Part shown: positions 8,825-9,652 of the stretch, in pieces | Position numbering within the stretch: position 1 is the stretch's first letter | Layout: every line of letters begins with the position of its first letter | From: an uncultured Clostridia bacterium | Lineage (GTDB): Bacteria > Bacillota > Clostridia > Christensenellales > UBA1242 | Direction of reading: 5' to 3' | DNA length: 64,000 bases | NCBI GenBank assembly: GCA_948442695.1 | Contig: CAOJSF010000003.1 | Span: 46,716-110,715, forward strand | Notes under the pieces: model-generated | Databases searched by the model: none | Told to the model about the DNA's origin: nothing | What the model saw: only the letters and a program-made list of their open reading frames with translations | Made by a program: the position numbers and the translations under genes

Positions 8825-9652
8825 TTAAGTATTATTTTGTTTATTCTCTACCATTGCTATATTAGATGTTTTAAGCCTTTCAACTAGCCTTTGCATAAAA
8901 TCTTTTTCACTAGGTAAATATATTTTATCCAAATAATATGTTAATTTATTATCATTATTTAAAAAGTAATGCCCATTTTCAAAAGTATTGTAGTCAAGTA
9001 CACCAATATATTCTTTGTATTGCTCTTCTAAAATACTATATAATAAGTCGTCGTCAATCTCAAATTCTGGAACATCAATATTTTTAAACCCTTGACTTCA
9101 AGTTATTATTCTTGCACCTATGGGGAAATAGGTATAAAAGCGATTGCCTTGTTGGATTGTATCATCTTTATATTTGGTAATATATTTTATTAAACCTCGT
9201 ATTTCATAAGCATTTTTAATATTGACAAATCCATAATCTCAAAACTTTTTAATATCATAATAACCTATTTTTAATTTTTCTTCATTTAATAATATTATAT
9301 GTATGTGGAAAAAGTGGCTTGTGCCTTGCACTTCAATAGCCCTTATATATTTAATATTGTTGCCATAGTTTCGCCTTATGCTTTTTATAAATTGTTTAAA
9401 GGCATTTAACACTCTATCAAACTCTATATAATGTTCAAAGGTAAGCGTAATTCATTTAGCAAAATAATTTGTCAAGTCCAGTTTATATAGTTCATACCTT
9501 TTGCGATTGATTGTTCTATTATAATCTTTTCTATCCATATTTAGTTTAGGCTTATCGCTACGCCTTAACCCATTTCACTTTTTATCTGCCTTTTCAGTAT
9601 TAAAATTTTTTGAAACAATAATCATTCCGTTTGCAAATTCAATTTTGTACAT
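8825..9652 (-). CDS. HUH rolling-circle replication initiator-like protein; needs TGA=Trp at 4 codons, otherwise a pseudogene
   Basis: It is absent from the ORF track. Reading from the ATG at 9652 to the TAA at 8825-8827 gives 275 codons. The only interruptions are TGA at 9575-9577, 9452-9454, 9239-9241 and 9098-9100. Motifs: K[W]ITLTFEH, SHFFHIHIILL (HUH) and F[W]DYGFVNIKNAYEIRGLIKYITKY (YxxKY). There is no in-frame TGG. Confidence 0.6.

Follow-up and report, generated by a model that had tools for sequence, protein, structure and literature searches.

In-frame TGA codons at tryptophan positions in the Rep and Xis-like genes of a small integrative element of standard-code Clostridia

The minus-strand gene at positions 8825–9652 of the window (the whole stretch of 64,000 nucleotides analysed here) is, by protein family and motifs, an intact HUH rolling-circle replication initiator (Rep), with nicking and joining as its predicted activities. 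Its tryptophan codons are all TGA, in a host that uses the standard genetic code, and we consider it very likely that this is the functional gene of an integrative element, with UGA decoded as Trp. The element is a new form of stop-codon recoding in mobile elements; gene-specific stop recoding would extend beyond large phages with a suppressor tRNA of their own to a tiny integrative element that has no tRNA. The best reading overall, to which we give a probability of about 50%, is that a leaky tRNA-Trp of the host reads UGA as Trp and that the TGAs throttle excision and replication.

The Rep gene and its in-frame TGA codons

Retranslation of the minus strand from the ATG at 9652 gives a TAA-terminated frame of 275 codons, in agreement with the sequence-only reading that drew attention to this gene, with four TGAs as the sole interruptions and with neither frameshifts nor internal TAA or TAG codons in the window sequence. 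TGA is the codon at each Trp position (26, 67, 138 and 185), and TGG is absent from the gene, as codon reading confirmed. All the motifs named beforehand (KK[W]NG, AK[W]ITLTF, HFFHIHI, KKF[W]DYGF, YITKY and IIT[W]SQGF) are found in the translation. A profile search against rolling-circle Rep families, which the same reading had proposed, placed the product above cut-off in Pfam PF23343 (REP_ORF2-G2P; 57.6 bits against 27.8, E = 1.6e-15) and also matched phrog_3584, a replication initiation protein (5.6e-9). In a 40-sequence alignment, H116 and H118 show no variation, and T69, L70, T71 and Y157 show almost none.

The HUH and Tyr motifs and the domain architecture are shared with the Reps of Firmicutes rolling-circle plasmids and with the G2P/ORF2 proteins of inoviruses and plectroviruses (PF23343), and tblastn gave weak matches to Rep genes of Staphylococcus and Lactobacillus plasmids. 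In contrast to these relatives, with which identity is ~30% over the core only, the gene belongs to an element that is integrated and is not a free plasmid. A Zot/pI-like morphogenesis gene was not found in the element.

The positions of the TGAs had been described as plausible for Trp, and a survey of these columns in the alignment of 40 Rep homologues bears this out. Codon 138 (9239–9241, minus strand; KKF-W-DYG) corresponds to Trp in 40/40 homologues and to TGG in paralogues, codon 67 (9452–9454, minus strand), directly ahead of motif I (ITLTF), lies in a column of aromatic character, with F in 26, Y in 5 and W in 3 of the sequences, and in the closest homologue clades the counterpart of codon 26 (9575–9577, minus strand; KK-W-NG) is W, while 4 island lineages have TGA there. 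The fourth, codon 185 (9098–9100, minus strand; IIT-W-SQGF), is TTA (Leu) in one relative, L014, and TGA in the rest of the clade. The paralogues have TGG where other copies have TGA. In the orthologues, TGA and not TGG is kept at the four columns: the same four TGAs occur in Rep homologues of 75–95% identity, which come from 8 or more samples and from 5 further MAG species, and they are retained among homologues with a dS of up to ~0.9, a pattern well outside anything that chance would give. Three further Rep copies of the same TGA type are present in this genome, and distant homologues with 31–35% identity are readable only with TGA as W. The dN/dS of Rep is 0.12–0.27 overall and 0.05–0.28 across the five inter-TGA segments, and purifying selection acts through all the Rep TGAs.

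The integrative element and its tryptophan codons

Rep lies in an AT-rich (~25% GC) integrative element of ~8.4 kb (1517–9938), whose borders were set from comparison with other species and from the GC profile and are approximate, to within ~10 bp. Two parts of the window, ~1512–6475 and 7549–9939, have 97–98% nucleotide identity to elements of two other MAG species (L032 and L037), with differing flanks. The variable module between them (~6475–7549), which is replaced in L032 and L037, contains the gene of a 293-aa multi-pass membrane protein (6473–7354, minus strand). At the left end is a tyrosine integrase of 485 aa (1757–3214, minus strand; PF00589 at 1.3e-24, phrog_1 at 6e-50), with 8 TGG and no in-frame TGA, and its start is overlapped by a small predicted winged-helix gene of 73 codons (3180–3401, minus strand), which we call Xis-like from its predicted fold and its position. 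Three function-unassigned genes follow (3642–5733; 326 aa on the plus strand, 114 and 161 aa on the minus strand), all TGG-only, and then the gene of a 168-aa protein (5797–6303, minus strand) with 3 TGG, in which a TGA stop is followed by TAA two codons on; a paralogue (C1) has an FtsK-gamma-like winged helix (PF09397).

Beyond the variable module, an XRE-family HTH repressor-like gene (7713–8021, plus strand; PF01381 and repressor PHROGs) is on the strand opposite to the Rep operon, and it adjoins Rep in related elements too. The second gene after Rep encodes a TGG-using 191-aa protein (8059–8634, minus strand), for which PF27257 (HI_0787_N) is found in homologues and which is missing from the second genomic copy (contig C21). 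The region upstream of Rep, up to the right end of the element (9653–9938, minus strand), may be a promoter, an operator or a double-strand origin, as judged by eye and from scans for promoter-like sequences and inverted repeats; AACTTGTGTAA occurs twice in it, at 9886–9876 and 9856–9846. Next to this end is the host tRNA-Val(TAC) gene (9965–10040, minus strand), with a terminator hairpin (9937–9955) that abuts the element. The search for an att site did not reveal a clear direct repeat shared with the 3′ end of tRNA-Val, and the integration target looks like an AT-rich stretch beside terminators.

No packaging, conjugation or tRNA genes were found in the element with Pfam, PHROGs, ARAGORN, Rfam, NCBIfam and PADLOC; NCBIfam and PADLOC added nothing on the functions of the island proteins, most of which match no known family. 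Like integrative mobilizable, AICE-like and PICI-type elements, it is a small island that encodes a recombinase and a putative directionality factor along with an XRE repressor and a Rep and that forms a circle on excision, and int, repressor, xis and rep together make up a PICI-like module. In contrast to these elements, a relaxase, coupling protein, terS or capsid-remodelling gene is not recognised; PICI-like packaging genes (terS, cpm or similar) were likewise not recognised in the element and no helper was identified. In the literature searched, control by in-frame stop codons is not described for integrative mobilizable, AICE-like or PICI elements.

The sole Trp codon of the Xis-like gene (codon 31, 3309–3311) is also TGA, and it occupies the identical column in three islands whose products have 39–42% aa identity. 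The ORF has no Pfam or other sequence-profile match. When its AF2 model (pLDDT 76.5) was compared with the PDB by Foldseek, the Pukovnik Xis (4j2n; prob 0.97, E 0.12) and BldC ranked highest and lambda Xis was among the matches; the top matches have Foldseek E-values of 0.1–0.4 and TM-scores of 0.5–0.68.

Within the element, TGA-for-Trp is confined to Rep and the Xis-like gene, which together have 5 TGA and 0 TGG, versus 0 TGA and 19 TGG for the remaining genes taken together (Fisher p = 2.4e-5). The integrases have no TGA in any island. The bias of A-ending over G-ending codons is 80:20 in Rep and the Xis-like gene and in the remaining genes alike. The +4 base after the sense TGAs shows the same pattern as after TGG codons and not one specific to readthrough.

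Host code and a possible decoder

The host uses the standard code. Genome-wide, 106 of 677 long ORFs (16%) have a TGA stop, and the neighbouring genes for which this had been claimed, rsmA/KsgA (13205–13984), TatD (13981–14787) and the SpmA-like Gate protein (15067–15675), do end at TGA, as does TilS (35705–37045). The Pfam model of TatD is matched through its last position, one residue ahead of the TGA, and the TilS domain likewise ends at the TGA of its gene. The sequence-only reading had called for a check of prfB and of suppressor tRNAs: prfB is intact in the host genome, and above cut-off in 149 of the 151 genomes of its family, and the only tRNA-Trp of the host has the anticodon CCA (ARAGORN). 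ARAGORN detected no tRNA(UCA) in the host genome (G000) or in the islands, nor did Rfam in the islands at a permissive E-value; in the related island loci scanned with both tools, as in the island of the window, no tRNA of any kind was detected. A genome-wide scan for TGA-interrupted coding genes returned the Rep copies alone, the other candidates being non-coding frames, and a scan of same-frame ORF pairs gave no clear TGA excess in the host. Backup stops downstream of host TGA stops are just slightly nearer than after TAA. Since the Rep and Xis-like genes are kept by selection, this TGA-terminating host must read through their TGAs.

The decoder may be the host's own tRNA-Trp(CCA), which we propose tentatively, with readthrough at native tRNA levels suggested by analogy. 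In this tRNA A27·C43 is unpaired and is followed by 4 Watson-Crick pairs and a 7-nt loop (CTCCAAA), and position 24 is A. The unpaired 27:43, the 7-nt loop and the CCA anticodon are those of the tRNA-Trp(CCA) type with a 4-bp anticodon stem, which is reported to raise readthrough of UGA both in E. coli and in eukaryotes (PMC13092985). In that work UGA reading by a tRNA-Trp with three mutations (C27A, G24A and G59A) depended strictly on C27A, G24A is listed among the mutations that facilitate UGA readthrough, and the boost in E. coli was only ~2.5-fold, with the tRNA overexpressed (PMC13092985). The host tRNA shares the unpaired 27:43, the 7-nt loop and the CCA anticodon and also has A24, whereas the subject of the published study is whole-genome UGA reassignment, with phages and mobile elements unmentioned. 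The same tRNA-Trp type is present in all 5 other species with the 4-TGA element and in G066, a genome with three TGA-Reps; it is also present in 18 of the 29 sampled family genomes, and because it is so common in the family its co-occurrence with the element is weak evidence. If the host tRNA-Trp is the decoder, the 4-bp-stem, A24-type tRNA-Trp(CCA) would have a natural, new role in standard-code bacteria, a role left open by a 2026 survey (PMC13092985), and some standard-code gut bacteria would read through UGA to a degree that matters for their physiology, with mobile elements taking advantage of it.

That UGA serves as a brake on Rep and Xis, with throttling as its purpose, seems rather probable to us. 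The element would live as an integrative rolling-circle unit of ~8.4 kb in standard-code, small-genome gut Clostridia, with its activation genes (Rep and the Xis-like directionality factor) writing Trp as UGA and the genes of the integrated state (integrase and the rest) writing Trp as UGG only. In an RF2-containing cell each UGA would mostly terminate translation, so that the UGAs would act as a post-transcriptional brake and excision and rolling-circle replication would be rare. Full-length Rep and Xis would arise when the host tRNA-Trp(CCA), with its A27·C43 and A24, reads UGA as Trp.

Programmed UGA readthrough by tRNA-Trp is known from the A1 protein of phage Q-beta, and low-level reading of UGA as Trp from Bacillus subtilis. 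In those cases, as proposed here, the competition between a normal tRNA-Trp(CCA) and RF2 sets the amount of protein. The known cases involve one UGA and a C-terminal extension, whereas here 4–5 UGAs are located within the catalytic core, and therefore no functional protein would be made unless all of them are read.

Several observations stand against readthrough by the host, among them the small difference in the distance of backup stops. The losses at 4–5 UGAs multiply, and 10–30% readthrough at each would leave 1e-4 to 1e-2 of the uninterrupted yield. No host gene with an in-frame TGA was found, and two hosts of TGA-Reps, G134 (G24) and G050 (A24), carry tRNA-Trp with the canonical 5-bp anticodon stem.

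Other readings and the spread of the element

A less likely explanation, and the main rival to decoding by the host tRNA-Trp, is that Rep and Xis stay silent until a suppressor tRNA(UCA) arrives with an infecting TGA-recoded (code-4) phage or with some other element. The helper would be sensed through its genetic code, and excision, replication and spread, or interference with the phage, would follow. The Rep TGA:TGG ratio is what the 80:20 A/G bias would give without constraint, as though TGA served as an ordinary sense codon at the times when Rep matters, and the 4–5 UGAs point to an efficient decoder. TGA-Reps are also present in hosts with a canonical tRNA-Trp, the order int, xis, repressor, rep is like that of phage satellites, and the lack of packaging, conjugation and tRNA genes of its own is consistent with such a lifestyle. 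That the element is indeed a code-gated parasite of recoded phages, with the suppressor tRNA of the helper as the satellite induction signal, we regard as doubtful.

This rival has precedents among the stop-recoded elements of gut bacteria, the Garnet and Topaz recoded prophages and the TGA-recoded Agate phages (Borges et al., bioRxiv 10.1101/2021.08.26.457843); a TGA suppressor tRNA was detected in only ~35% of the TGA-recoded phages of that study. Like the element, the recoded prophages are integrated in standard-code gut hosts and combine a stop-free integrase with other genes that contain in-frame sense stops, and their code was proposed to act as a lock that separates the active state from the integrated one. 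They differ from the element, which has 8–9 kb, in being tailed phages of 22–35 kb or larger with mainly structural and lysis genes recoded. In the element, capsid, portal, terminase, tail and lysis genes are not recognised, and the recoding affects 2 genes only. The described recoded prophages use TAG, whereas the element uses TGA. When a TGA-recoded Agate phage is compared with a standard-code relative, the nearby DNA replication genes have not accumulated TGA, in contrast to the Rep of the element. Recoded phages also often encode a suppressor tRNA or a release factor themselves, whereas the element has no tRNA.

Against the involvement of a helper, no recoded phage or suppressor tRNA was linked to the host, although the collections searched are incomplete and absence is not disproof. 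As in G000, tRNA(UCA) is absent from the 151 family genomes, where a search with a canonical tRNA(UCA) pattern gave matches at control level, none of them a tRNA, and a host-like tRNA-Trp arm with UCA gave 41 IMG/VR matches, again none a tRNA. HK97-type prophages, followed through their capsid genes, are rare in the family and 0 have TGAs. Three host CRISPR spacers have no match in IMG/VR, and none of 15 host spacers match the islands. The island genes were not found in IMG/VR or INPHARED (0 matches), and Rep and the 191-aa protein were absent from IMG/VR, INPHARED and the JGI metagenomes, for which a first metagenome scan, with W back-translated as TGG, was ill-suited; alignment A1 is too diverse for scanning collections. 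Should a helper phage be the decoder, this would be a new principle of satellite induction, and if the element is a code-gated parasite, the switching of the genetic code would be a communication channel between mobile elements.

Much less probable is an import of the element, or of its Rep module, from bacteria with TGA as Trp such as Mycoplasmatales, in which case the Clostridia copies would be dead ends and conservation would come from a code-4 reservoir. The Spiroplasma plectrovirus ORF2 belongs to PF23343, the Trp codon usage of Rep is code-4-like, and gene callers picked table 4 for short contigs with Rep. However, Trp is written as TGG throughout the integrase and all the other island genes (0:19), which is unexpected for a code-4 host at 25% GC, and in another element (L045) 4/7 non-Rep genes appear to stop at TGA. 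The base composition of Rep is that of the remaining island, the Xis-like gene, unrelated to plectroviruses, has a conserved TGA of its own, and at column 241 TGA was gained from Leu codons within the Rep clade. The element family is also mobile: a related element was assembled as a 9.2-kb circle with a 30-bp terminal overlap in L010 and is integrated at a tRNA 3′ end in L009 (circular form in sample SRR34282136, integrated form in ERR6748682), and near-identical copies (97–98%) lie at differing sites in differing species. Every copy that could be placed lies in a Clostridia MAG with RF2, and the near-identity of copies in several of these species argues for ongoing spread there.

Decoding of UGA as an amino acid other than Trp, whether selenocysteine, for which UGA is the codon, or Cys or Arg through near-cognate tRNAs, as known elsewhere, is very unlikely: ARAGORN found no tRNA-Sec in the host genome, homologues have invariant Trp or aromatics at the TGA columns and paralogues have TGG there, and where these columns change it is to Leu, one base away from TGA or TGG. 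A-to-I editing of UGA to UGG was rejected on the contexts of the TGAs, which are unlike the target motif generally given for TadA.

An ordinary pseudogene or an assembly artefact, as might be supposed from the four breaks of Rep under table 11 and the presence of RF2, can be dismissed, since dN/dS is far under 1 in all segments, the PF23343 matches in the 151 family genomes have TGA as their only internal stops (8 matches), the lone non-TGA stop in any copy (codon 261 in L033 and L034) shortens a variable C-terminal tail, and the same TGA positions recur in independent assemblies from many samples. The earlier argument against random decay holds, as the orthologues have no extra frameshifts or internal TAA or TAG apart from this tail stop, and the concern about assembly errors raised with it is answered by the recurrence of the TGAs.

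The element family keeps two activation genes behind UGA over long evolutionary times and in many host species. Such elements are under-counted in gut genomes, because annotation with table 11 silently omits the Rep and Xis genes. The clade of elements with a TGA-for-Trp Rep is wide.

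The Rep gene and its in-frame TGA codons

The 275-codon reading frame claimed from sequence alone for the minus strand (window 8825-9652(-)) runs on translation from ATG to TAA, and its only interruptions are indeed four TGA codons (26, 67, 138 and 185), with no TGG. The translated ORF matches Pfam PF23343 (REP_ORF2-G2P) with an E-value of 1.6e-15, exceeding the cut-off, as well as phrog_3584, and its product is predicted to be an HUH rolling-circle initiator. The conserved columns of a 40-sequence alignment include Rep motif I, the HUH motif (H116/H118) and the Tyr motif (Y157).

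Full-length homologues with 95, 82 and 75% identity are present in the protein collection, and the contigs encoding them all translate solely under TGA = Trp. The four columns hold TGA in all of these homologues, except for one TTA in contig L014, while a fifth TGA, derived from a Leu codon, occurs at column 241 among close homologues. The same four TGAs are found in six more Rep copies, from MAGs of five other species. Each of the five inter-TGA segments is separately under purifying selection (dN/dS 0.05-0.28), which argues that the entire ORF is translated. Across 40 homologues Trp is invariant at codon 138 and codon 67 is aromatic; the nearest clades have Trp at codon 26. The claim of the sequence-only reading that random decay does not account for the TGAs is borne out by their retention in homologues and by pairwise dN/dS values of 0.12-0.27 (dS reaching about 0.9); with the per-segment selection and the Trp or aromatic columns, this rules out a decayed gene. 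Among more distant homologues (31-35% identity), TGA = Trp is the sole readable code in four of the five with DNA, and in the 151 host-family genomes eight PF23343 matches contain internal stops, every one of them TGA.

The element, its mobility and related islands

Rep sits inside a 25%-GC island, whose borders (about window 1517-9938) were drawn from copies of 97-98% identity in two other species, where the flanks are different. Besides Rep, this element encodes a 191-aa protein and three others without assigned function, an XRE repressor on the strand opposite Rep, a membrane protein, a winged-helix protein, a 73-codon Xis-like gene and a tyrosine integrase; most of the proteins match no known family, and the element may be plasmid-like, a satellite or a mobilizable island. 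The Xis-like assignment is putative, and is based on the position of the gene beside the integrase and on a moderate fold match (the top matches of its AF2 model are Pukovnik Xis and BldC, with weak E-values). The variable module holding the membrane protein (window 6475-7549) is swapped for unrelated sequence in the L032 and L037 copies, which are otherwise 97-98% identical, and it resembles a slot for exchangeable cargo. Upstream of Rep (window 9846-9886), AACTTGTGTAA occurs twice, 30 nt apart, and may serve as an operator or as a Rep-binding (origin) repeat.

A related serine-recombinase element was found as a circle (9.2 kb, 30-bp terminal overlap) in L010 (Logan contig SRR34282136_18181) and integrated at a tRNA 3' end in L009 (Logan contig ERR6748682_16558). 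The circular form, together with near-identical copies in several species, shows that the element family is currently mobile. The L009/L010 junction has the common core TTTGGCTCCCCA, and the 62-codon ORF directly upstream of the serine recombinase has one TGA within it. The MAGs with close element copies, mostly from mouse gut catalogues, are titled uncultured Eubacteriales, Clostridia or Christensenella.

The genome holding the window has three further Rep copies with in-frame TGA, on contigs C21, C1 and C3. A second copy of the window element is split over contig ends (C21:147-974(-) and C3:1-3391); its Rep has 96% nucleotide identity to the window Rep and the same four TGAs, its 191-aa gene is deleted, and its upstream region diverges from the window copy past the Rep start. 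The divergent C1 island (C1:~52000-63000), beside a probable CRISPR-Cas9 locus, has a Rep with four TGA and no TGG; its other genes include one for an SPFH/zinc-ribbon protein and one for a BspA-type LRR protein of 880 aa. It directly adjoins a type II CRISPR array (C1:~50588-51590; 16 repeats), next to which a 1216-aa ORF is probably Cas9; none of the 15 spacers of this array matches the islands. The C3 island L047 lies at C3:~19000-25000, which is 22 kb upstream of the window. Its Rep holds two TGG and a single TGA, the latter close to the N-terminus. The L047 integrase is 45% identical to that of the window, and the L047 Xis-like gene has the conserved TGA.

Host code and gene-specific use of TGA

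The host is a standard-code organism. Its 1.32-Mb genome (31% GC, completeness 96.9%) has an intact prfB and, by ARAGORN, a full tRNA set with one tRNA-Trp(CCA) and no UCA anticodon, and 149 of the 151 sampled genomes of its GTDB family have RF2 above the cut-off. TGA terminates 106 of 677 long ORFs. It is also the stop codon of rsmA, tatD, the SpmA-like gene and tilS near the element, as the sequence-only reading had stated for host genes, and the Pfam domains of these genes are complete before the stop. The +4 base after TGA stops is T or A in 89 of 106. Backup TAA or TAG codons lie slightly closer after TGA than after TAA stops (median 7 vs 9 codons; not significant), a weak hint that the host tolerates some UGA leakiness.

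Within the window element, the Trp codons of Rep and the Xis-like gene are 5 TGA:0 TGG, and the remaining genes have 0 in-frame TGA:19 TGG (Fisher p = 2.4e-5, or 1.1e-4 with the TGA that ends the 168-aa gene included). Since the A-over-G bias at comparable two-fold sites is 80:20 in both gene sets, Rep appears to evolve with TGA as a free synonym of TGG, and the other genes with TGA as a stop. Three islands of only 39-42% identity all encode the one Trp of their Xis-like protein by TGA, at a shared column. TGA occupies one or more Trp columns in each of nine Rep lineages, in varying combinations with TGG (22 TGA:14 TGG in total). In-frame TGA was never found in the integrase of any island examined, and at locus L045 TGA apparently terminates four of seven non-Rep genes. 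This gene-specific pattern rules out that the element came wholesale from an organism using table 4, and points to a regulatory use, with activation genes placed behind UGA and maintenance genes not.

We propose, as the likeliest mechanism, that the UGAs would serve the integrated element as a translational brake on its excision and rolling-circle replication, full-length Rep and the Xis-like protein being made through Trp insertion at UGA. Because Rep is first in a long minus-strand gene string, its early termination might also have polar effects on the genes that follow.

Candidate decoders and precedents

No tRNA gene was found in the islands scanned, nor a canonical tRNA(UCA) in the 151 host-family genomes. 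Our best guess for the decoder, at a probability of roughly 45%, is a leaky host tRNA-Trp. The host tRNA-Trp(CCA) is unusual in having A·C at 27:43, which shortens the anticodon stem to 4 bp, and in having A at position 24, which pairs with U11. According to a 2026 survey (PMC13092985), 4-bp-stem tRNA-Trp(CCA) decodes UGA in certain eukaryotes, and in E. coli it increases UGA readthrough; a C27A/G24A/G59A triple mutant of tRNA-Trp reads UGA in vitro, C27A being essential, and G24A is among the listed mutations facilitating readthrough. In about 6.5% of standard-code bacteria no other tRNA-Trp type is present; the survey left its role there open and did not discuss mobile elements (PMC13092985). 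The 4-bp-stem type is present in 5/5 other species with the four-TGA element and in G066, a genome with three TGA-Reps, although these counts ignore phylogeny. A simple link between tRNA and element is weakened by how common the type is in the family (18 of 29 sampled genomes), by two hosts of TGA-Reps with 5-bp stems (G134, with G24, and G050, with A24) and by the compounding of four to five UGAs to a very low full-length yield.

The near-neutral TGA:TGG ratio of Rep favours an efficient decoder, such as a suppressor tRNA that arrives with a helper phage recoded at TGA; the element would then be a code-gated satellite. We consider this source the main alternative, somewhat less likely than the host tRNA. 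Searches including IMG/VR and INPHARED, which are incomplete collections, found no such phage. The host tRNA and a helper phage are not mutually exclusive.

The closest known parallel is with the alternatively coded prophages that Borges et al. described (bioRxiv 10.1101/2021.08.26.457843), for which the code was proposed as a lysis-lysogeny switch. Like these prophages, the element is integrated in a standard-code gut host and its integrase is free of recoding, but it is only 8-9 kb, lacks recognisable virion genes and a suppressor tRNA, and recodes TGA instead of TAG. Recoding here is confined to Rep and the Xis-like gene, whereas the TGA-recoded Agate phage, compared with a standard-code relative, had not accumulated TGA in DNA replication genes (bioRxiv 10.1101/2021.08.26.457843). 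Our literature searches turned up no satellite or integrative element whose rep gene is described as UGA-gated. Phage Q-beta A1 is produced by programmed readthrough of a single UGA, with which the element would have the decoder in common, but the architecture is different.

Elsewhere in the window, a HicB-like antitoxin gene (PF15919, phrog_497; 902-1312(-)) lies just outside the left border of the element. GC climbs from 25% to about 37-43% at the gene (10511-13069(-)) for an 852-aa protein without a Pfam match, which combines a multi-pass membrane region at the N-terminus with a long charged tail rich in Lys and Glu. BspA-type LRR proteins are also encoded at 28242-29096, and one frame that stays open over at least 4855 codons and stops at TGA (49420-63987(-)) presumably encodes a giant surface protein.
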